DNA of 56,635 nt, counting the filler, from Dugesia japonica (lineage: Eukaryota): assembly GCA_001938525.1 (NCBI GenBank). It is 5 parts of 5 records of this genome, joined end to end, with 100 filler letters (N's around TTAATTAATTAA, not from the genome) between each part and the next. Parts side by side here need not be neighbours in the genome. Positions count along the whole stretch, not along the records: positions 20,610 to 37,627 come from MQRL01606560.1; 4 more parts are not named here. The stretch is one strand, 5' to 3'. Shown one piece after another: positions 9,359-50,620 of this stretch (position 1 is its first letter; each line of letters opens with the position of its first letter). Both the position numbers and the translations under genes were made by a program. The notes beneath the pieces were generated by a model. The model was not told the DNA's origin, searched no databases, and worked only from the letters and a program-made list of their open reading frames with translations.

Positions 9359-9458
9359 NNNNNNNNNNNNNNNNNNNNNNNNNNNNNNNNNNNNNNNNNN
9401 NNTTAATTAATTAANNNNNNNNNNNNNNNNNNNNNNNNNNNNNNNNNNNNNNNNNNNN
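9359..9458. other. Artificial scaffold-joining spacer
   Basis: Exactly 44 N + TTAATTAATTAA (stops in all six frames) + 44 N. Confidence 0.97.
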
Positions 9459-11052: not shown

Positions 11053-12386
11053 TCACAAATTTAACAGCACAACACAAGGATCCTCAATAAACGATTTTAT
11101 CTTTCTGAGAAAGAGAACAGCCTCGCGCCCATCAATCAATCGGTGATCGTATGTGAGTGCCAAATACATCATCGGCCGGATCTCAACTTTCCCATCGATC
11201 GCAACTGGGCGCTGTTGAGTAGCGTGTATTCCGAGAATCGCTGATTGCGGGGGATTGATGATCGGAGTTCCCATCAAACTACCGAAAACTCCACCGTTGC
11301 TAATGGTGAAAGTGCCACCGTCCATATCTTCAATCGCCAACTGGCCCAATCTAGCGCGTTCTCCCAATTCGAATATTCCTTTCTCAATTTCTGCGAATCC
11401 CATATTTTGAACATCTCTCAAAACCGGCACCACCAAACCTTTCGGAGTGGCAACCGCGACGCTGATATCGATATAATCCCGATACACAATGTCACCACTA
11501 TCGATCACAGCATTAACTACCGGTTGATCCTGCAGCGCTAGGGCTGCTCCTTTGAGAAAAGCCGACATAAATCCTAATTTTACTCCGTGTTTCTTCTGAA
11601 ATGCTTCTTGATATTTTTTTCTTAAGTTTATGATGCAACTCATGTCACATTCATTAAATGTTGTCAACATCGCACACGTATTTTGTGCGTTTTTCAGTCT
11701 TTCTGCAATTCTAATTCGCATTCTATTCATTTTTACTCTTTGTTCACCGCGAGAGCCAGAAATATTCGAATCTGATGGAACAATTCGTAATTGCGGAGGA
11801 GGAAATATTTCTTTGATTAATTTATCATTTTGTAATGCTGGACTGCCTGTAAATTTTACTTCTTTCTTTTCTGTTACAGTTTCAGGTTTTTTCTCAATTT
11901 TCACTTCACTAATCACTTCTTTTTTTGGTTCAGTAACAGAGCCAAGTGAAATCTTTACTAAATCCTGATTGGCAATTACTTTGTCTCCATCTGCAACTAG
12001 TAATTCCAAAATCGTTCCATTAAATGGTGAATGAATTGGAATTGCAGTTTTATCAGTTTCTATTTCACCAACTACTTCATCAACAGACACAGTGTCGCCG
12101 GGTTTTTTAGACCATCTTACATCGCCTTCTGTAACTGATTCGGCAAAAGGTGGTGTTTTAATTATTTTATTTTCCTCAAATAGAAAAGAACTAATTCCGA
12201 TTTCTCTTTTAATTGTAAATATTCTGAAGATTAACGTTGAAAATATATCAAAATTATTCAATGCTATTACTTATTACGATTTCCATTAAATTGAGCAGCT
12301 TTATTACCAAAATTATTTATTAACACTTTATTAAATCGAAAATGAAGATTAATAGCTTTGATATTAAAAATTTTATATAAATTCAT
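11053..12386 (-). CDS. DLST: Dihydrolipoamide succinyltransferase (E2 of 2-oxoglutarate dehydrogenase), 2 exons (12386-12271, 12223-11053), ~428 aa
   Basis: Lipoyl motif [33 protein letters not shown], catalytic DHRLIDG; a 47-bp GTAATA..TTCAG intron (12270-12224) joins an N-terminal presequence-like exon in frame. Confidence 0.95.
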
Positions 12387-17399: not shown

Positions 17400-17760
17400 G
17401 TCAATTTTTTATTAAAAAATCTGTTATAGACAGTTGAAATTTTGATTTTTTTAAAGTTCTTTATACAACTCTTATTACCCAGCCAAACAAATCTTCATAT
17501 CTCGTTCGAATTTTAGGGCACATTCTATGTTTGGATAGATTTTTAAGAAATGATTCACCATACTTTTACCAAATGTTAGACCTTCACCAATTAAACTAGC
17601 AGTTAGTTGAAATATTTCAGGCTCCTCGTCATTATCGCTATTATGATTCTCATTATTACCACCATATTTTATTAATTCAATCAGATAATCCACTTCTAGA
17701 GGTTTATCTATCATCAATTCGTCGACGTCTTTAATTTGTATGTCCTCAAATCCTCAAACG
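17400..17760 (-). mobile_element. Tigger/pogo transposase C-terminal fragment
   Basis: VDYLIEL..GNNENHNSDNDEEPEI.QLTASLIGEGLTFGK.MVNHF is nearly identical to the copy at ~49492-49680. Confidence 0.85.
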
Positions 17761-20509: not shown

Positions 20510-20609
20510 NNNNNNNNNNNNNNNNNNNNNNNNNNNNNNNNNNNNNNNNNNNNTTAATTAATTAANNNNNNNNNNNNNNNNNNNNNNNNNNNNNNNNNNN
20601 NNNNNNNNN
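20510..20609. other. Artificial scaffold-joining spacer
   Basis: 44N + TTAATTAATTAA + 44N. Confidence 0.97.
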
Positions 20610-20610
20610 T

Positions 20611-21960
20611 AAATTGGATGTAAAAATAGCTGCATATTTTAACAATAAAATTGATTTTATTTATCATGAAATTTTGAGACAAGTAGACAGAATATATCAA
20701 GAAACAATGATGAGAAATTGTAAAATTAAACGAGAATTATTGAGGGCAAAAATGCAATGGTAGTCACAAATCCGGATCTGGTAGCACCACTCCTGTTCGA
20801 GGAAAGAGGAACATTTGGAAGAATAGTGGGAGAAACTNTAGTGAGTTTTCAATGTAAACCAGTAGCCGTTACGCTTACAGATCATGAGAAATGTACAAAT
20901 GAATTACCAGTAATATATAAGGGAGAAAAAGTGTTTCTGCTTCCCATAACAAGGATTTTAACAGATAAACATTATCAACCAAAAAGGATTGAAAAATTTA
21001 GTAACATTCTTGATCCTAAATACAAAATAAATGAAGAGGTATGCATAACAGTGTCGGATAGAAAGACAGCACCAACTCCACTAATGATGGAAATAATAGA
21101 GCTTGGTAGAACAACAGAATTAGAAAGGATTGATAATATAGAAAAGCGTGGTATTTATACGATTAACGATATTGAGAAGGCGCGAAAACATATGCTGTTC
21201 CCAATACAAAGAGAGAAAATAATATCGATTGTTAAGTAATAATAAGAGAGAGATAAGTAATGATATCAAAATATGTATTTCACAACAATGCTATGTGTAT
21301 ATATATATATATATATATATTGGGATCAGGCATAGTAATTACCCAATTGACCTTGTTAGTAATTATGTCATCAAACAGTCAAACATATCAGATTTTTCAG
21401 GCATANNNNNNNNNNNNNNNNNNNNNNNNNNNNNNNNNNNNNNNNNNNNNNNNNNCATACATGCAAACATACAATTACATAACATAAAATATTTAATTAT
21501 CATTATTATAATTAATCACATCTTACATCAATAATGGTCGATAAAGTAGCAAGAGGGAGTAATGGAGACGACTTGAATTTTGAATCACTATTGCACGCAG
21601 ATCATTTTAAAAGGGCAATGCGTAATTTCGTAGATAGAATTTTGGGGGGAATGCAATGATTTGGTAATATATTCTCATGTATCCTATTTGGATGGTATGT
21701 TTTAACATTTTTTAAATTAGCGGGTCATCAAATAATTTCTCTAAGACAATTACATTCAGTTTTTGGTTACACATGGAAATTAGGAGCATGTTTCTGCCCA
21801 TTTATTGCAAAACACATGATTGTGCAAAACCACAGTAAAAAAAATAAAAAACTTGGAAAAGCATCGAGGCGTATATACAATAAACATGGATGATGAGCAA
21901 GAGTTAAAAAAATTAAATAATGATAGATCATCAGAAACGGAATATAAACCATATAAATAA
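20611..21960 (+). pseudogene. Chuvirus/gB-type (class III) fusion glycoprotein, C-terminal half
   Basis: AYFNNKIDFIYHEILRQVDRIYQETMMRNCKIKRELL; GRIVGET.VSFQCKPVAV..HEKCTNELPVIYKGEKVFLLPITRIL; GIYTINDIEKARKHMLFP; after the insertion FGNIFSCILFGWYVLTFFKL..LHSVFGYTWKLGACF (membrane anchor). The motif order matches chuvirus-type G as I recall it. Confidence 0.8.
21230..21527. mobile_element. Nested solo-LTR-like insertion in the glycoprotein gene
   Basis: Begins TGTTAAG, ends CTTACA, flanked by TCGAT/TCAAT (5-bp TSD, one mismatch); removing it restores ...KIISIMVDKVARG in frame. Confidence 0.75.
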
Positions 21961-22027
21961 GAAAATATCGAATTAGAACAGAAAAATAGATGATTCAACA
22001 CAATATAAATATCAAAAGAATTACTCA

Positions 22028-22670
22028 ATGTCAGTCATAGATTCAGACAATAATAGACCCACAGCCGATATTATAATAAATGGAATTAGTATACCTTCGT
22101 TGATAGATACAGGAGCAGTATGCTCAATAATAAAAGAGTCATGGTTAAATAAAGCTCAAAGACAGAAAATAAAAAATTACAAACCAGAAGGTATAAAATC
22201 ATTTACAGGTCACATAATAAAAACAAAAGGCATAATTGAATGTACGGTCTCAATTGGACAAGAAATTGTTACACATCCATTTAGAGTAATGGAAGATGAA
22301 ACTCAGAATTGTATTTTAGGTATGGATTTTCTGGCAAGATTAAAAGGATACGTCATTGATTTGCAAGATAGCACACTAAAAATGGTAACATCATTACCAG
22401 TGNNNNNNNNNNNNNNNNNNNNNNNNGCAACAGAGTTAATAACAGTGGAACGCTGTAGTGAATGTATAATACCTGTACATACAGAAGTACAAAATAACAA
22501 ATCATAAATTTTTGAACCAAATGAGAAATTGATAGAGAAAGATAATTTATCAATAATGCCCGGATGTGTAGAACCAAGAAAAGGAATAATATCAATGAGA
22601 ATAGCCAACTGTAATAATTACGAGGTGATACTTAAAAAAACACAAAATTAGGAAAATTATTTGAAAATGG
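22028..22670 (+). pseudogene. Retroviral-type aspartic protease followed by a dUTPase-like spacer domain
   Basis: SLIDTGAVCSII and CILGMDFL; then IIPVHTE..LSIMPGCV..ISMRIANCNNYEVILKK.TKLGKL. Confidence 0.85.
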
Positions 22671-22957
22671 AAACGAATATGAAATATATGAAATTGTATT
22701 TGAAGAACAACAAAAGAAAGTGAACCTATAGAAGCACAATAAACAAACCCCGAATATAAAATCAACAAAAAAGGGTTGTCAACTAAATAAGCATGAACTA
22801 TTTGAGCTTATAATGAAAAAACAAGAGAAAATAGACAAAATAATTGACAAAGAACTAATAAAGCAGAAACAAACAAAATATTATGAGAAAGGAAAAATAA
22901 CAAATAAAGATCTCACAATAAATCAACGACAACAACTACAGAAATTATTAGACAAAT

Positions 22958-24265
22958 ATGAGGATGCATTCANNNAAACATGAATTTGATATGGGAGGAA
23001 CAAACATTATAAAACATATAATCGATACAGGTAATGCAAGACCAATAAAACAACGACCATATGTAGCACCATATGTGTTAAGACCGGGAATCAAAAGACA
23101 AGTAGCGGAACAAAAAGCGAATGGAATCATACGAGATAGTTTTTCTCAATGGGCATCGCCAATAGTAACAGTTAAAAAGAAAGACGATGAGATTGGAATG
23201 TGTATTGATTATAGAAAGCTTAATGAAGTCACACAAAAAGATACACACCCATTTCCAAAGATACATGAACAATTCAATAAGTTAATGAATGCAAAATACT
23301 TTGCAAGTTTAGATGCTAATAAAGGTTACAATGTAACCCCAGTACAAGAAGAGGATCGAGAGAAAACAGCATTCTGTACTGATGATGGGTTATATGAATT
23401 TATCAGATTACCGTTTGGGCTATGCAATGCACCAGCTACATTCCAGAGATTAATGAACACAGTATTAACAGGTGTTGAACATGTAGTTGTATACATGGAT
23501 GATATACTCATAGCATCTGAAACATTTGAACAACATTTGATTAATATAGAAAATGTATTGTCCAGAATTAGAAAAGAAAATATTAAATTAAAACCCACAA
23601 AGTGTAAATGGGCAGAGGAAAGTGTTTTATTTCTGGGACATATTGTATCATCAAGAGGATTAGAACCAAATCCAGAAAAGGTAAAAGCGGTCCAAGATTT
23701 TCCAGTGCCAAAGAGTGTACAAAAATTACAAGGATTTAATGAATTAGTGGGATATTATCTTAGATTCATACAAGATTTTGCAAAAATATCAGCACCATTG
23801 GTAGAATTAACCAAATGTATGAAAACAAAAGGGGAAAGTAAAAATGTCATGATTGTAGAACAACTAGATGAAAAATCAAAGAAGCCTCAGAAGAAATGGG
23901 TCCCAAAACAACAAGAAGCCTTTAATACATTAAAACAACGATTGCTAACAGCTCCAATATTAAGATATCCTGATTTTACGAAGCAATTCATAGTAATGAC
24001 GGATGCAAGTGGATATGCTATGGGAGCAGCGCTCGGTCAGGAAGACGAGAAAAATAAAGATTATGTAATTGCATATGCCAGTAGAATGTTAAAAGGAGCA
24101 GAGACAAGGTATTCAACAATTGAAAAAGAATGTTTAGCCATCATATTCGCGTTAAAACAATTTAGACCATTTATATATGGAACAGAAATAATGATTCGAA
24201 CAGATCATAAACCATTAGAGGGCCTATGGAAAAATAAAGATACATCCATTAGAATACTGAAGTAG
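22958..24265 (+). pseudogene. Gypsy reverse transcriptase + RNase H
   Basis: SQWASPIVTVKKKD, CIDYRKLN, LPFGLCNAPATFQRLM, YMDD, TDASGYAMGAAL, YSTIEKECLAI, TDHKPL. Confidence 0.97.
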
Positions 24266-24268
24266 GCA

Positions 24269-25652
24269 ATGAAAATCCAAGATATGAGCATACGTATTAT
24301 ATACAAGCCAGGTAGAGCAAATAAAAATGCCGATGCATTATCAAGAATTCCGGAAATAAATATATTAGAAATGATGTCAATTGTTATGACAGGGGCAAAC
24401 CCAAAAACGTTTCTGGAAGAGCAAAATAAAGATAAACGAATCCAAGAGATTAAAAGGATGATGCTTCAAGAAAAAATTACCAAATATAAAATGTATAAAA
24501 ATCTGCTTATGTACAATAATTTAGGGGAAAATCTGATGGTTGTACCAGATTCTCTAAAACAGTTATTATTATTACAATATCATGATGGAGCGCTCGGAGG
24601 TCACCTGTCTAGTAGAAAAACCACGTCAAGATTAATACAAAAATACTATTGGGATAATATAAAAGAGGATGTAAAGAAGTGGTGTAAAGCATGTAGTATC
24701 TGTGCTACAAGAAAAAATACAGGAACAAAAACCAAAGTTCCATTACAACCAATGCCAATACCCAGCTCACCAATGGAAACATGTGCAATGGACTTTTTGT
24801 GAAAATTACCAACAACTATTAAAGGTAATAAGCATATATTAGTATTCAATGATTATTTTACAAAGTGGGCAGAGGCATTTCCTACAAATAATGAAACGGT
24901 AGATACTGTAGCAAAGTTATTAGTTGAAAAGATAATATATAAATATGGAGCGCCAAGAAAGTTGCTATCAAATAGGGGAAAGAGTTTCCTCAATGAAGTC
25001 ATACGAGTAACAAATATGTTTGATATTAAGAAAATAAATACAACGGTTTATCACCCACAAACTGATGGGTTAGTTGAAAGATTTAACAGTACATTATGTA
25101 ATAGACTGGCAGTTTTCGTAAATAAACATCAAAATGATTGGAATCTATTTATTAAGCCAACATTGTTCATACATAATACAACTGAAAACGAAGCCACGGG
25201 ATATTCACCATTTTATCTTATGTACCTCAGACAAAATCATATGCTAATAGATATAACATTTTGAGCCAATTGTGTCACAATATATGGATAATCCAGATTA
25301 CATTACAAAAATGCAAGAAAGACTACAAGAGGTATACAAACAAGTAAAATTCAATCTAAAAGTAAAATTCAAACAGGAACAATACAAAGACTATTTTGAC
25401 AAAAAAGCTAAAGAACATAATTTTAAAGTAGGAGATAAAGTGAGGATAAAAACAACAGTTACACAAAAAGGGTTAACAAATAAACTAGCCAGANCTTATA
25501 AAGGTCCATATNAAGTAGTAAAAACAACTCCTACAAATTTACACGTAATAAAAAACAAAAAAGATGATCCCATGATTGTGGCAGTTAACCGATGCAAAGT
25601 AGCAGAAGCAGAAATTGAACCTGAAAAACAACACAAATTTAACCTTCGACCA
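24269..25652 (+). pseudogene. Gypsy integrase (H2C2, DDE core, GPY/F)
   Basis: HDGALGGH..CKACSIC; AMDF; DYFTKWAEAFP; SNRG (D changed to N); HPQTDGLVERFN; YKGPY; ends FNLRP; internal stops at 24800 and 25262. Confidence 0.95.
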
Positions 25653-25667
25653 GGATCACAAAATGAA

Positions 25668-26613
25668 TTACCACTTTTTGCACTAACTTTAGTGACATTA
25701 ATAACAGTAAGTGCAGCAAAACTAGAAAAAGAACAAAGTTTTGGTATTATAGAAAGAGTAATATATCCTAATAGTATCGTACTGAAGACATCGAATAATA
25801 TAACAATTGCTGCAACAATTAAAGAGCAAGTAATCGAATATGTCATAACAAATGAATACATCACGAGAAAGAGATATGTTTTTAAAGAAATATCAATAAA
25901 ATTTAGCAAGGGNNNNNNNNNNNNNNNNNNNNNNNNNNNNNNNNNNNNNNNNNNNNNNNNNNTAAAGAAATATCAATAAAATTTAGCAAGGGAAAAGGCC
26001 AGATAGAGATAAAAGGACTAGAAGCTGACACAACATGTAGAATTTGGATACAATATAGAATGAACGGAGTCAAATTATTGAGACAGTATATATTTACCAC
26101 GTTACCAACGAAACTGATTATACCGCAAAGACAGTTAATGAATCCTTCAAAGAAACAGGAAAAGTCGAGTACAACCAAATTACAAATAAAGACAAAATTT
26201 GTGACTATCCCTACAAGACAAGAGAAGTTAATTCCAACCAAAGAAAAAATAGAAACAATTATTCATCACAATACAAGAATATATAATAATTTTACAGTGA
26301 AAACGACAACGTGTGCGATAACAAACAAAAATCCAAGGAGAGATAGACAGACTCGGATTAATAGCATAAATTTAGATCATCAACAATTGCGACATAAAAT
26401 TCTACAGAGGTGGGTTACAACCACAATAAAACCATTTGACCTAAAATATTATATCATCCTTTTTCAATATTGGGAATAATTGCATAACTCATCCTCCTCG
26501 CTTTCATAATTACATTAACCCAAATACTTAAGCGATATAGGTGGAAGAGGCAGCGTTATCGGCGTCGCAATGCCCAACAAATTCCGAATTATGTCCGATG
26601 GACATTGGTCTGA
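25668..26613 (+). pseudogene. Type-I membrane protein in frame after integrase: signal peptide, Fn3-like domain, Thr/Lys-rich stalk, TM helix, basic tail
   Basis: LPLFALTLVTLITVSA; IEIKGLEADTTCRIWIQY..YIFTTLP; then, after a frameshift, FSILGIIA*LILLAFIITLTQILKRYRWKRQRYRRR; the duplicated ends of the gap at 25913-25962 collapse to an in-frame join. Confidence 0.65.
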
Positions 26614-26756
26614 GCACCCTATACAAAATTTGTTAAAATTCTATATCATTATTTATATATATTTTTCTTTATATTATAAGCTACTAATACATGTGGCAGT
26701 ATATAGGACTAGTCAGTCCTTAAAATCAAAAATTAATTATTACATTTTTTTTAGAA

Positions 26757-28926
26757 ATAACACTTCAAAAAAAGATATCAGAAACAAGCCAGATCAATCA
26801 ATACATTATAATATATAACAGACAAATCACAAAATACCATTCCTTTACATATTACATAATGCAGTCAAAACAGCACGTTACACACATTCAACAATCGAAT
26901 AATAATATACAGAAAACACATCAATACAAGCAAGCAGAACATAACATAACAAGAAAAGATAACAAAAATAGCGAATTAACACAGTCAATGCACAATAAAT
27001 CTACACACTCGGCAAACATTCCTTCATCCTCATCCTTAGTCACAAAAGGTGTCGCGCATTTTTATAACCATATACAAAGTTTTGTATTCAAAGATAAAGA
27101 TAGTGAACCTAGGATAGAAGTTTTTAATGGTGTAAATACAATCCCGAATGTCTTAAAGAACAACACTTTTGATAAAGACATCATTGTGATAAGATTTCAG
27201 AAAGCTCAGAGATACTCACTACAACAATTTATAGGATATATAGAAATAGAGGAAGATCCAAAAGAAGCACTATTAAATGGCAAACGATTACTTAAAGAAA
27301 TTAGATTACATGTTACAAAAACTCCTATTAGATTCTCGTAGAAAAAAAGAGATATACATATGCTGGCAAACAACACACTGATATTAGAGGGAAAAATAGA
27401 TCCAGGAGTAAATAAAATAAAAGTTGCAATACAGGATATTCCAGCCGTTCTTTGTGTAGAGTTAATTTATCATGATCGTATTTCTGCACCTTTTTCTACA
27501 TATACTGCTATAAAAGGGCATTGCGTGGTAATTTATATAGATCTGATTAACCATACATCGTTCCTCAAATATGCAATCTTAACAGAAAATGATATAGAAC
27601 AATTAATAGTATATGTAGATATGATAACAGTCAAGGATTCATATTTTAATTTGCAAGTGGTAGAGTTGACTATATTAAATAATAAAGGAGAGATTATATT
27701 GGATGAAACCCTATGTCTACGAGAAAGGATAAAGCATTTTGACACGCCAAGTACAGGGTATACCCATGAAAAGATAAAGAAATGTAAAGATGCATATCCT
27801 ATAGTTCTGAAAGCACGGCAGTTATTGTATGGGAAAATACTAGTCGGTTTTGAATTAGGAAATAAACTAACGAGTTTGCACATTAACCACAGACATGTTA
27901 TTGGTATCAGAGATCTTGCGGAAGACATATGGCGTAAGATGTATACTCCGAATGTAAAGAAGTTGAAATTGATCAACNTTATGGAAGCAGTATTTAAACC
28001 CATAAGGCAAGATAGGGTCATCAGAGATATGTTGAAAAACAGCGAGAGAAAAAGCGCAGGAATCGACAGCAAAACGAATAACATTCATAAAGATTACATA
28101 CAAACAAATAATTACTCAACAACCATGGCACGATTCTATATATCCTGGTAATAACCCGGTTATGAAAAGTATAGAAAATAATGCTGCAATATTGCAAGAA
28201 GTCATGACTAGAGAAAAGGAGAAACCAGACAGTGTAATATGGATATTAGATTCTGAACAAGATTCAGATATGGAAGAGAATGGAGAAGAGACAGATAGAA
28301 GCACAGATAGTCAATCTAATATGAGTAGTGACATAAATATAGAGTGGGACGAGGAAGACTTACCAGAAGAACTTAGACCGCATAACGACACTGGTGAGCA
28401 GCAGAGATTGATTGATGACATAATGCGACAAAGTCCTAAAGAGATACAAACAGATATGGACGCATCTGAGGATGACGAAATCCCAGAACGGACAATGTCA
28501 CAGAGAGAACAAAAGGAGTCTGGAAGTGAAACTGAATACTGGTCAGGTGAAGAAGTGGAAGATCTTAGGTTGAATCAAGTAAGAGGAGATTGCGAGTTGA
28601 TACCGTATCATACGGATAGCGACAGTGATGACCTCAGTCCTGAACCACAAATTGATATATACGAACCTGGTACGGACACAATCAATTTGAATAGAGCCCT
28701 CAAAATAGATAAGTTCGATGGAAATATTAACAATGCAAAAATAACTTTGAAAAGAATATCGGGTAAAGATATGCAATTACAGTTTGGAAAGAAACACATT
28801 AGATTAACAACCATTAAGGAGGATAGTAAGAAGACATTAAAATTTATTGTTGAAAATGTTTTGCTTAACACCATCGCTGTCACGAAAAAAGGTGCCGTAC
28901 TTACACTTTCAGTTAACAATGATTAA
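26757..28926 (+). pseudogene. ~720-codon accessory ORF with a REX4/ISG20-like DEDDh exonuclease-fold domain (~27600-28110) and an acidic linker
   Basis: IVYVDMITV..VVELTILNNKGEIILDE..IKHFDTPSTGYT..QLLYGKILVGFELGNKLTSLHINH..IRDLA follows the REX4 pattern; in-frame TAG at 27339 and a frameshift near 28050 link the three predicted ORFs. Confidence 0.7.
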
Positions 28927-29009: not shown

Positions 29010-30324
29010 ATGAATCCCAGTTATCAATCACAACGATTGTTTTGTGTTACAGTCAGCACTTATAACTTTATATGAGAAACACCGGAACTTAACAAACCCT
29101 TACAATTATTGTTGGTCAGACATTGCACCAGTTACGTTACTTATCACAGATAAACCTATGTGTCCTTTATGTTACGACCAACCTATTTTACCTCGTATAG
29201 CACCATGTGGCCACTTCTTTTGTTTTGCTTGTATAACTGAATATTTTAATATAACCCACTCCGATAATTTACTTTGTCCTTCTTGAAGATCTCAACAAAT
29301 TTATGATACTAAATTACGTCGTGCAAATTTCTATTATGTTAAAAAACCTTCTGTTGGACAAATTGTCTCACTAAGCCTCATGGTTAAAATGCCGTGTAAC
29401 AATAGTACGCGCTTTGCCCATCTCACCACTTTTCTTGAACAAAAAGACATTCCTGATTGTTACGATCCTGTCAGCGAATTCCAAGACATCTCCACCCAGC
29501 ATGATTCCTTAACAATGAAACAAATTAACAATGACATTCGGACAGTCAGTTATGGTCAGTTTTCGAAAAAACAAAAACATCAGTTAATAAAAATATTGAA
29601 GGCTGAAAGAACACATTTTACGTTCCACATTAAAATATTAGATAAGCTTCAGTATGAGAAGACATTCACAGAAAAAACCATGGATGCTGCCAAATTTAAC
29701 CTTTTAGTACAGCATACTACCTTGCAAATTACTATCTTTGTGTATCAGTCTGCCGCATTCCATCGAAAATTTCTCAATGAAAAACAGAAGACACGATTTC
29801 TTAATAATCAGCCGGACAGTACCCCGTTTTGCATAAGTGGATATATTACAACAATAGATTCGATTATAGTTGATCATGAGAACCTATAAAATTTTCAATA
29901 CCATTTTCTACCCGACCATACAAAAATCCGATCGCTGTCTATCACTATTAATACGATATCTATCCCTAAATCGCTTGGCCCATTAAGTTATTTGTATACT
30001 CACGCTAAAATAACGAGAATGGCAATAGAAAAACGCAATCCAGAATTACAAGCCATTGCGAGTGAAAGCAGAGCTAGAATAGGCCAGCCTGCCAGAATAC
30101 TTACCCGTCAATCTAAAGAAAGTGCTATAGATATTTTCTCCCGAAGTCCTTCTGTTTCCCCATCCTCCATAAATCCAGAAGCCGAATTCCCGGTATGTAT
30201 TTTCAATGAACCTTGTTCCAATAATACATTTTCACCGTATCACGATATTGTCCCTATTTCGCGTTTATCCAAAGATGACGGAGCATCTATTTCGGAGAGG
30301 GAACGTTTGTTGAGGTTTGACTGA
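29010..30324 (+). pseudogene. RNF10/Mag2-like C3HC4 RING E3 ubiquitin ligase, intronless, decayed
   Basis: CPLC..PRIAPCGHFFCFACI..CPS* RING; also RNF10-like flanks (W.DIAPVTL, VGQIVSLSLM, FVYQS..KFL, TPFCISGYITTID, YHFLPDHT); ORFs 29044, 29380 and 29992 share one frame, separated by single stops. Confidence 0.75.
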
Positions 30325-37627: not shown

Positions 37628-37727
37628 NNNNNNNNNNNNNNNNNNNNNNNNNNNNNNNNNNNNNNNNNNNNTTAATTAATTAANNNNNNNNNNNNNNNNN
37701 NNNNNNNNNNNNNNNNNNNNNNNNNNN
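37628..37727. other. Artificial scaffold-joining spacer
   Basis: 44N + TTAATTAATTAA + 44N. Confidence 0.97.
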
Positions 37728-44862: not shown

Positions 44863-45882
44863 TTATTCCATTATTTCACGGATTTCATCCTCTGAAATAT
44901 TGTCTAATAAACTGGTTTTTGAATTGTTATTAGTATTTAAAATACATTTACCAGAAATGGAAATTACTTCATTTCTGGCGTTATTGGATGTCATAATTGT
45001 CGGTATTTTGTCTGATACAGATTTAGAAATTTTATTTGATGGCATTTTATTACTAGCAGTATTACATGATACAGTGGATTTGTAACAATTTTCATCTTCT
45101 GATGAATCCTCAAGTTCACTCTCTTGATAAAGAGCATATTCATGACACAAATCCTCTACATTGTCGTGAGCTTCAAGGAATTCCGATTCTTCCATTCCTT
45201 CTCCAACATACCAATGAAGAAAAGCTGATCGACGATACATTGCTAAAAACTGACTGTGAACCCTTTCAAACATGTGACGTATAGATGTATTATTGGCAAT
45301 AAATGTGGCCGACACTCGAAATCCTCTTGGAGGAATATCACAAACTGCAGTTTTTACATTTGACGGAATCCAGTCTACATACTGAGATTGATGTTTGTTT
45401 TGAACTTTTAACATATTTTCTTCAACTTCTTTCGTTGAAACTCGACCCCGAAATACTGTAGCAACTGTCAGATATTTTCCAAAAGCTGGATTACAATCTG
45501 TCATCATGTTTTTCTCTTGGAACATTTCATTAATTAACATATTTACGTTTACTTCGTTTTTATATTGGCTGTTTAAACGACTTGTTAAAGGTGCAAATCC
45601 TGGAATTAAAAAATGCAATCGAGGAAATGGAACCATGTTAACTGCTAACTTTCTTAAATCAGCATTTAACTGTCCAGGAAATCTTAAACATGTCGTAATA
45701 CCCGATACTGTATTTCCCAGTAAATGATTTAAATCTTCATATGTCGGATTACTTAAACAAAGTTTGTTTCGACATATTCTATACAACGCTTCATTATCAA
45801 TACAAAAAGTTTCATCAGAGAAGGAACAAAGATAGCTAGCAGCCAACGTGCAATTGTACGGTTCAACAACCGTTTCAGATAT
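44863..45882 (-). CDS. Divergent beta-tubulin, terminal exon, with a ~73-aa C-terminal extension
   Basis: [76 protein letters not shown]; phase-0 acceptor at 45882; upstream exons absent from the scaffold. Confidence 0.93.
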
Positions 45883-46199
45883 CTTAATGAGATAATGAAA
45901 TAATATAATTATAAATTCAAATAANNNNNNNNNNNNNNNNNNNNNNNNNNNNNNNNNNNNNNNNNNNNNNNNTAGTTGAGTTTGATTCAAAGATTGTCTT
46001 TTAAATAAATATATAATACTCTTATAATGGCGATAATAATTATTGGACTTCAATAAGTTTAAATATCAGAATGTTGTTTTTTTGTTGTTACTATTGCGAA
46101 TTTACGACAATAGTCTTCTTCGGGTATTTCAGTCGATTGGAATCGTCTATAATTTGTTTATAATGTCCACTATGTATAAAGTACACATATTGTACAAGC

Positions 46200-46299
46200 N
46201 NNNNNNNNNNNNNNNNNNNNNNNNNNNNNNNNNNNNNNNNNNNTTAATTAATTAANNNNNNNNNNNNNNNNNNNNNNNNNNNNNNNNNNNNNNNNNNNN
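46200..46299. other. Artificial scaffold-joining spacer
   Basis: 44N + TTAATTAATTAA + 44N. Confidence 0.97.
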
Positions 46300-48423: not shown

Positions 48424-49490
48424 TAGTGTTTCTTAAACGGGATCCTGGGATCCTGGGGGTAAAATTGAGAGCGGGATATCCCGGGATTTAAGTAATATAT
48501 CCCGGGAAACCAATTTCTTTGTTTAATTTAAACGCTTATATTTTTGGATTTCCCTTTTTATTTTACTATTCAATTTTTTACATTTGATAAATTATTTTTG
48601 TAATTATGTAAAATAGTTTATTCATAAACATAAACGAACGTGTAGAGTGCATTGCAGATTGAAACTTTGAAAAACAAGTTAGTCATTTATAGCTTATTTA
48701 ATTTATTTGAAATAATTCTAAGTTAAATGCATACATTTAAACGCATCAAAATCGAAAAGTAAGTAAGAACATTTTGTAAAAGTATTTTTGTTTTATAATG
48801 ATATTTTTATTTAATTTATCGATTATTTTATTATCTTGCGACTACTACTAGTAGTCTACTACTATAAAAAGTCGATTTAATTAGTTTTATGTTGCGATGC
48901 TAGAGAGATTCTTTGAATTAAAAACATGTGTATTAAAGGCAATGATCAATTTAAAAGAATCTCTCTATATTTCCAATATGCAGTAATGAAGACAATAACA
49001 AAGTCGTTACAGCCAATAAAAATTGGAATAGTAAGGATTGGAAGATACAATGCTACTTTACTTGACGCTGAAGGCGTATTCATATTTATCTTCAACGACT
49101 TAGCTAGAGTGAAAAATTGGATTTCTACTAAAATGCTCTAATCTGTGCAGCAAAGAATTCAAGAACGCAGAAATATAAATTTAGTTGGCTAAAACTTTTA
49201 AACAGCCCGTCAAATTATCATTATAAATCGGAAGATATCAATTCCAAATTGGTCTTGCCCGCCGAATATGCATTACATGCAACAGCTAAAAAACTTTTCA
49301 CTAGGCTTTACATTGAGGATGCTAGTGATACTTCGGCATAAAATCAAGTAATAGATTAGAGTCGTGGTTATGAAGACGACATTTCATTGATAACTCAGCC
49401 AGCTGCCTCAAGATCATTTAGTGAAGTTGATTTAACACATCGATTGAATCGGAAAGTGCGTTCTTTGCAGTGGGACTGATTAAAAAAAGA
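48424..49490 (+). mobile_element. hAT-like DNA transposon fragment (terminus plus part of the transposase)
   Basis: TAG start with clustered CGGGAT/ATCCCG subterminal motifs; LQPIKIGIVRIGRYNATLLDAEGVFIFIF..QRIQERRN. Confidence 0.65.
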
Positions 49491-49491
49491 G

Positions 49492-50620
49492 AAATGATTC
49501 ACCATACCTTTACCAAATGTTAGACCTTCACCAATTAAACTAGCAGTTAGCTGACATATCTCGGGCTCCTCGTCGTTATCGCTATTATGGTTCTCATTAT
49601 TACCATCATCTGCTACTAATTCAATCAGATAATCCACATCTAGAGTTTCATCTATCATCAATTCATTGACGTCTTTAATTTGTAGATCCTCAAATCCTTC
49701 TCCTCCGATTTCGTGTGCCAAGGCTATAATTTTAGAAGACTCCATTGATGTTTGGGGCACTGAGTTACCACTATTGACGTATTCTGGCCAAAGTACTTTC
49801 CAGCAGGCATTTAATGTTGATACTCTTAACTTCTCTGTGGCCATTGAAGCATAAGTAAAGCAATCCAAAATCGAATATTTTTTCCATGCATCAATGATTG
49901 CGACGTTGTCTTTCTTCACTGCATCTAAAATATGTTGGAATGCTCGTTGAATATAGTTAAGCTTAAACGTAGCAAGTATACCCTGATCTAATGGTTTAAT
50001 CAAGGAAGTGGTATTAAGAGGCAAAAAGGTTACTTAAACATTTGGATGCTCTAATACCGGATAACTNGGCGCATTATATACGATCAAAACCACTTTAAAA
50101 TTGAGATATTGGTGCTCCATATATTTTTTAATTTCAGGAACAAAGAATTCTTCAAACCATTCTGTAAATAGATCTGCTGTCATCCAAGCCTTTTTATTCG
50201 CCCCCTAATGAACCGGCAACTGTTGAATGTTTTTTCCTTTCAAAGCACGTGGCATTAATTCTCGGTTAATTAAAAGAGGCTTTAAAAATTTATCACCAGA
50301 TGCGTTGCTACACAGTAAAAAAAGTCACCCGATCTTTAGCAACTTTAAAACCACTTGCAATTTTTTCAGATTTTGCTATAAAGGTTCTGGCAGGCATTTC
50401 TTTCCAGAGCAGACTCGTTTCATTGGCATTGAAAATTCGTTCGGGAACATAGCCCCATTTTCAATTATTTTGGCTAGTTTTACTGGAAAGGTTTTAGCAG
50501 CCTTTTCATCTGCTGATGCAATTTCTCCATTAATGTTTAAATTATGAAATGCATTTCTTTTAAAAATCCCGTTAGCCATCCATCACTAGCAGAAAATTCT
50601 TTCCTCCTATCTTGCTTTGA
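49492..50620 (-). mobile_element. Tigger/TIGD1-like pogo transposase, decayed
   Basis: FSASDGWL, GEIASADEKAA, IFNANET, LCSNASGD, NKKAWMT..FTEWF, LPLNTTSLIKPLDQGILATFK. Confidence 0.92.

Follow-up and report, generated by a model that had tools for sequence, protein, structure and literature searches.

A predicted Fn3-type membrane protein in frame with the integrase in a clade of Ty3/gypsy elements, seen as a decayed copy in Dugesia japonica

A predicted membrane-protein tail, likely of the Fn3 type, fused in frame to the end of the integrase, is a real feature of a clade of Ty3/gypsy elements and is seen as a dead copy in Dugesia japonica (assembly GCA_001938525.1). The element is a variant of the known gB-type env-before-pol gypsy elements. 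The in-frame fusion is found in this copy and in four intact relatives, the tail region displays coding constraint, and in D. japonica a gB-type env gene lies upstream of pol. The predicted Fn3-type surface protein would most likely serve in attachment, alongside the gB-type fusogen, a reading to which a probability of roughly 0.45 is assigned. The DNA analyzed, here called the window, is a stretch of 56,635 nucleotides, filler included, joined from five parts, and all positions are given in whole joined window coordinates.

Structure of the element in the window

The window element is cut off on its 5′ side by a sequence gap ending at 20609. The first gene present, at 20614-21806 (+), is a broken gB/chuvirus-type (class III) fusion glycoprotein gene, represented by its C-terminal part including the transmembrane region (PF24664, E-value = 6.6e-26; tblastn against the env of the relative P0091, E-values = 1.2e-16 and 6.5e-5). 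Its position upstream of pol is that found in the GAG-ENV-POL gB-type errantiviruses. An aspartic protease is situated at 21977-22504 (+; PF13975, E-value = 2e-11) and a reverse transcriptase with RNase H at 22952-24262 (+; PF00078, E-value = 6.1e-31; PF17919, E-value = 2.8e-37). The end of RNase H and the integrase, the latter with zinc finger, core, GPY/F C-terminal domain and an FNLRP end, occupy 24266-25652 (+; PF17921, E-value = 2.3e-20, PF00665 and PF18697, and translation). The domain order given by Pfam over the 19 frames scanned is gB/chuvirus-type env, protease (PR), reverse transcriptase (RT), RNase H (RH) and integrase (IN). With the PR-RT-RH-IN order and the GPY/F integrase C-terminus present, the element is a decayed copy of a Ty3/gypsy (Metaviridae) element.

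The frame from the RT to the integrase carries two in-frame stops and one frameshift near 25260. The uninterrupted open reading frame that characterizes an intact gB-type errantivirus (PMC13524379) is thus broken in the window by stops and frameshifts, which concerns the copy and not the family. Self-BLAST and a repeat search of the window, where the 5′ part of the element ends at the gap, gave no LTR pair. An identity with Troyka was considered and rejected, as Troyka is described in the available text of PMC12440569 as having neither an env nor a GPY/F motif.

The 100-nt gaps of the window (9359-9458, 20510-20609, 37628-37727 and 46200-46299) each carry a central 12-nt linker with stops in all frames. 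They resemble contig joins, and the sequences flanking them may therefore not adjoin in the genome. Other features of the window include a C3HC4 RING finger at 29014-29283 (+; PF00097, E-value = 5.8e-8), which may be akin to that of host RNF10. A 2-oxoacid dehydrogenase E2 subunit is found at 11053-12270 (−) as a single 405-codon frame with no visible introns (PF00198, E-value = 3.9e-81), and the C-terminal part of a divergent tubulin, with a long Ser/Asn-rich extension, at 44863-46065 (−; PF03953, E-value = 1e-36). A DDE_1 transposase remnant (E-value = 2.8e-10) and a second, 209-nt piece of 91% identity account for 17546-17754 and 49398-50033.

The integrase frame and its extension

FNLRP is at 25638-25652, and from there translation shows the integrase frame to be free of stops up to an N gap at 25913-25962. 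The frame passes through a hydrophobic stretch at 25668-25721 (KD19 = 1.87, KD11 = 2.44). The segment 25668-25718 (+) forms an internal signal-peptide-like stretch, with small residues at the likely cleavage site, and a comparable stretch is found in the four intact relatives described below (P0025, P0026, P0031 and L001). No in-frame Met is present between the integrase end and the hydrophobic core in the window, P0025 or P0026, while one is present in P0031 and L001. A stop that would end pol is absent from all five elements.

The signal-like stretch is followed by a single predicted Fn3-type beta-sandwich of about 100 aa at 25719-26110 (+), which is split by the 50-N gap. A sequence of 30 nt is identical on either side of the gap (25884-25912 and 25963-25992). 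This duplicated overlap had been noted in the initial annotation, and in two of the three contig runs available for the same organism (see below) contigs of other copies span the gap without the duplicate, which identifies it as an assembly artefact. A second frame begins past the gap and extends for 171 codons; it holds the Fn3-like motif IKGLEADTTCRIWIQY (26009-26056) and a stalk (26111-26440, +) with 15% Thr and 12% Lys, a composition to which the A-richness of the strand may contribute (AT skew 0.26-0.29). Between the stalk and the transmembrane (TM) region the window copy has a frameshift. The third frame contains the predicted TM helix at ~26461-26517 (+; KD19 = 2.81), interrupted by a premature stop at 26485-26487, and then an Arg/Lys-rich stop-transfer tail (26530-26613, +), where the frame ends at 26613.

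The layout proposed in the initial annotation, i.e. a frame open past FNLRP into a signal-like stretch, and further on a Thr/Lys stalk, a TM helix with one stop and one frameshift, and an Arg-rich tail, is therefore borne out by translation and hydropathy at these positions. The signal and TM calls in the window are made at the level of hydropathy and motifs, and at that level both are predicted. With the signal-like stretch, the TM helix and the basic stop-transfer tail, the extension is predicted to be a type I membrane protein. The 257 codons of the first two frames contain no stop, compared with a mean of 19.9 stops in a dinucleotide Markov null, in which 0 of 20,000 resamples were open. 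The open frame past the integrase exceeds chance.

Further frames of the same element are found downstream of the tail at 26724-28926 (+). They include a degenerate DEDDh-exonuclease-like domain at ~27597-28016, which gives a weak match to SDN1 (E-value = 0.14) and is homologous to the second open reading frame of L001 (E-value = 8.4e-6). The latter matches RNase_T with an E-value of 0.0033. A DEDDh/RNase T-like domain is thus situated after the tail both in the window (27597-28016, +) and in L001 (3712-5559). Visual inspection shows that both lack the second acidic residue of motif I, so the nuclease-like domain may be inactive. The initial annotation had placed a second surface protein in the canonical env position. 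The protein does follow the integrase; however, it forms the C-terminal part of the Pol frame, there is no separate env-like open reading frame, and it is the DEDDh-like frame that comes next.

Variation among genomic copies

In three contig runs of one organism, 2,161-2,874 contigs per run align on 25513-27977, mostly with 90-99% identity. The region of the window element, at least to 27977, is a multi-copy family. The codon at 26485-26487, a stop in the window, differs in all contigs that cover it (29-48 contigs per run, in all three runs). Among the best-supported 40 of 434 variant rows there is no indel at a 10% share at the integrase-signal junction, and no variant there that makes a stop. 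A conserved stop directly after FNLRP in other copies was sought specifically: the four intact relatives show none between integrase and signal, and the listed junction variants include none.

Across 25513-26757, the summed depth of contigs amounts to 13,584-36,607 where the integrase ends, drops to 286-2,299 in the ectodomain and stalk, and reaches 7,970-111,316 at the TM helix, the tail and the next 150 nt. This profile, in which depth is not a copy number, suggests an ectodomain that is variable or often deleted between conserved ends. None of 43 diverged RNA reads (one RNA run, ~25% sampled) falls on 25679-26342, which is weak evidence either way.

Intact relatives

Relatives were taken from an RT-RH frame search of public metagenome proteins, as the best 120 of 374 longer proteins. 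The alignment extends through the integrase end in 66 of these 120; among the 66, 20 have at least 150 residues beyond it and three have a predicted TM helix there. These three, P0025, P0026 and P0031, are also the closest of the 66 to the window at the integrase end (99-101 bits vs 58.5 or less), and they are the window's three best RT-RH-IN matches among those listed, with 46-47% identity. In each, the frame stays free of stops past the integrase and encodes a signal-like stretch, then either one or two beta-domains and a stalk, and finally a TM helix with a basic tail.

A search of JGI contigs with an integrase-end profile gave five loci, L001-L005; the same profile found no match in viral contigs. 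L001 displays the same intact ending as the three proteins, followed by the nuclease-like frame already mentioned. L003-L005 end just past the integrase, and in L002 the extension differs from the window tail. At 3529-5727 of L002, a clade-like integrase end is followed in the same frame by a pair of protease-like domains and a stretch resembling a zinc finger, and then by a signal-like stretch, a Cys-rich domain and a stalk rich in Thr. Just upstream of this segment is an open reading frame that by eye resembles a transposase. A word-based search with the post-gap piece of the window yielded no match among 26 candidates of 94-300 aa. A profile of the relatives' tails recovered two of its own three members and nothing else among 5,920 candidates, and had no match in the JGI contigs.

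N-glycosylation sequons in the intact relatives number 0.9-2.0 per 100 aa in the ectodomains vs 0.2-0.5 in pol. The window ectodomain has the number expected from its composition (2 vs 2.0). Between P0025 and P0026, identity is 42-50% in the Fn3 domains and 29% in the stalk compared with 85% in pol. The Fn3 domains thus diverge faster than pol, a pattern common in surface proteins. In P0026, residues 48-230 form a second signal-Fn3-TM module before the protease, at the place where the env TM ends in related elements. This module is homologous to the domains after the integrase (0 of 300 shuffles).

P0091 carries gag (by eye), a gB env and pol in one open reading frame that ends inside the integrase, and the L001 sequence begins in the RT. 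No gB gene is visible in the available sequence of the four intact tail-bearing relatives. Among the elements compared, with P0091 and L001 limited as stated, gB and the tail occur together in the window only.

In an RT-RH tree of 102 of the 120 proteins, the window falls in an open group with P0025, P0026 and P0031 whose order is not resolved, and is not joined to the tail clade. An RT-RH-IN tree of a chosen 19 of the 120 places the window, P0025, P0026, P0031 and P0091 in one clade with support of 98/97. With 18 of the 120 plus L001 and L004, the five tail elements and P0091 form a clade at 95/93, and in the RT-RH-IN tree with L001 the tail-bearing group alone has support of 80/70. The residue composition of the window was flagged as atypical in both subset trees.

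Predicted fold of the ectodomain

A model of the P0026 tail, built from an alignment of three sequences, places two seven-stranded sandwiches between the signal helix and a disordered stalk, which leads to a TM helix, with a mean pLDDT of 50.5 (50-70 in domain 1 and about 70 in domain 2). The top Foldseek match is Tie2 Fn2-3 (E-value = 2.1e-6) and further Fn3 proteins come next; viral structural matches are mostly phage Fn3 and tail proteins. VIA-align gives Z = 9.6 both to fibronectin and to a monobody, with an rmsd of 2.9 over 80 residues. The domains of the P0026 tail are therefore predicted to have the seven-stranded Fn3 fold, as the model matches solved Fn3 structures. The model of the L001 tail is uninformative (mean pLDDT = 37.8).

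By sequence, each of the six domains of P0025, P0026 and P0031 is recovered by the others when left out of the profile (leave-one-out, 0 of 300 shuffles in every case), and the two L001 domains score against the relatives' profile with 0 and 3 of 500 shuffles as high. Compared with the same six domains, the window domain is not significant: 41 of 1000 shuffles are as high for the right half, 93 for the read-through and 348 for the left half. With an HMM of the eight domains of the four relatives, L001 now included, the right half of the window domain scores above all 1000 shuffles. For the read-through with X at the gap 14 of 1000 are as high, and for the left half 695 of 1000. The window tail ranks second among 1,207 window frames with this HMM (E-value = 0.45). 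In the ESM Atlas, Fn3 clusters are on top for the right half (0.90, 0.90 and 0.89, with 130 shared features), a level reached by 4-10% of shuffled proteins.

Pfam fn3 (PF00041) gave no match at E-values up to 1 in the window or the four relatives, and no Fn3 entry was matched in PDB sequence searches, whether started from the motif region of the window or from the profile of the relatives. A PDB sequence match to CENP-U was set aside, since that identity conflicts with the P0026 model. The Fn3-like domain proposed in the initial annotation consequently stands in part: the C-terminal half of the window domain is modestly matched by the profile and the ESM Atlas, while the N-terminal half is without a match. 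Support for the Fn3 assignment is good at the level of the clade and moderate in the window copy, where it is confined to the C-terminal half.

Relation to known systems

The closest published elements are the GAG-ENV-POL HSV/gB-type errantiviruses of Platyhelminthes, Bryozoa and Nematoda (Chary and Hayashi, PMC13524379; e.g. Smed_errantivirus_1-6), which share with the window a Ty3/gypsy pol with an upstream gB/chuvirus-type env and a multi-copy state. However, their main text, as far as available, describes no protein after the integrase, and the terms 'fibronectin', 'FN3', 'fused' and 'exonuclease' have 0 occurrences in it. Elements with env ahead of pol have been described in flatworms, nematodes and bryozoans (PMC13524379), and Burro has this layout too (PMC6431247). 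In the giant planarian gypsy elements Burro/GYPSM1, a single polyprotein holds env in frame, with gag before it and pol after it, and there is accessory cargo; a membrane protein after the integrase or a fibronectin domain is not mentioned in the available text (0 matches; PMC6431247). These elements exceed 30 kb and carry BIR, BCL2-like and MATH cargo, with a dUTPase between PR and RT (PMC6431247). No dUTPase match was obtained in the window frames scanned, where 22505-22951 lies outside the scan and the 5′ half of the element is missing.

LTR elements of bdelloid rotifers (Rodriguez et al., PMC5408684) have TM-containing and DEDD-type exonuclease open reading frames downstream of pol, as does the window. 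In the rotifers, however, these are separate ORF3s that mostly replace env, and fibronectin is not mentioned in the available text (PMC5408684), whereas the TM protein of the window is in the Pol frame and additional to env. In the literature available, which extended neither to Sacco et al. 2022 nor to Grohme et al. 2018 or Repbase, no account was found of a gypsy integrase followed by an Fn3 membrane protein.

Discussion

In the proposed mechanism, the integrase frame would continue into a stalked type I membrane protein that likely has one or two Fn3 domains. A single polyprotein may thread the ER membrane twice, with env in the lumen, Pol in the cytosol, the Fn3 domains in the lumen and the basic tail in the cytosol. 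The internal signal would send the Fn3 part into the lumen, and the TM helix with its basic tail would stop transfer. Internal signals are cut by signal peptidase. As an in-frame Met is lacking ahead of the signal in three of the five elements, release of the surface protein from the Pol polyprotein by the host signal peptidase is likely. The freed protein might then reach particles or the surface of the producer cell and bind target cells.

A model for such a division of labor is herpesvirus gB, a class III fusogen that works with the separate binding and trigger proteins gD, gH and gL; herpes gB needs these partners, and cell entry by gB elements is unexplained in the available text of PMC13524379. 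The top structural matches of the P0026 tail show no link in sequence or fold to gD, gH or gL. A counterpoint to an attachment partner is that class III proteins, rabies G for example, can carry out both binding and fusion by themselves (PMC13681701, in the text available). The chief weakness of the partner model is that, among the elements compared, the window alone combines gB with the tail.

An attachment role has to be weighed against functions outside the entry machinery. The protein may instead have its target in the host cell, where it could imitate receptors or adhesion molecules with Fn3 domains, serve as a decoy of them, or prevent reinfection. Host receptors use the Fn3 fold, the planarian Burro relatives carry host-modulating cargo according to the available text of PMC6431247, and a degenerate nuclease frame is present in the same clade. 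The two Fn3-TM modules of P0026, at different places, and the fast divergence, which is consistent with an arms race, also fit this explanation. However, the tail is in the canonical env position and in frame with Pol, and by eye its short cytosolic part has no recognized signaling motif, so that host modulation appears somewhat unlikely. The fusion itself could be what matters, if the internal signal tethers Pol or integrase to the ER membrane for assembly at an env-bearing membrane, the Fn3 part being secondary. The in-frame fusion is kept in all five clade members with a visible tail, and in L002 the frame likewise stays open from the integrase end to a signal-like stretch further on, its ectodomain being of another kind. 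A tether would not need a folded, duplicated and sequon-bearing ectodomain or a second TM helix, though, and P0026 has a module unconnected to the integrase; such a role is considered unlikely.

It is more improbable still that the tail comes mostly from a subgenomic RNA, produced by splicing or by an internal start as for the canonical gypsy env, with the open junction being incidental. A sequence that ends at 25653, with 9 pyrimidines in 15 nt, could serve as a 3′ splice site, but the 180-nt stretch in which it lies holds eight YAG sites, which makes one there unremarkable. The Met before the signal in P0031 and L001 would suit internal initiation, but no RNA joint is seen in the one, thinly covered RNA run, and a stop at the end of pol is missing from all five elements. 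Finally, the tail could be a captured piece of host sequence that is now dead, or a frame left open by chance in a single decayed copy. The window copy is indeed broken and its domain is only weakly similar to those of the relatives. This explanation is nevertheless largely refuted and very improbable: none of the null frames was open, the region is multi-copy, the same layout is found in four intact relatives, and the eight domains of these relatives are linked by the leave-one-out or held-out shuffle tests given above.

The preferred reading therefore remains that of an attachment protein acting beside the gB-type fusogen. A wider proposal, tentative and rather doubtful as a whole, is a two-component entry machine encoded in one polyprotein of an invertebrate endogenous retrovirus clade. 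A gB-type class III fusogen would precede Pol and a fast-evolving Fn3 receptor-binding protein would follow the integrase, both released by signal peptidase.

Surveys of pol that are trimmed at the integrase would miss the tail. The placement of Pol between two lumenal proteins in one reading frame would be an unusual processing scheme for a retroelement, and a second membrane protein conserved in the same elements is a concrete candidate partner for gB. If the two-component proposal is true, it would represent a retroelement counterpart of the attachment/fusion split of herpesviruses and would supply the missing partner of errantivirus gB.
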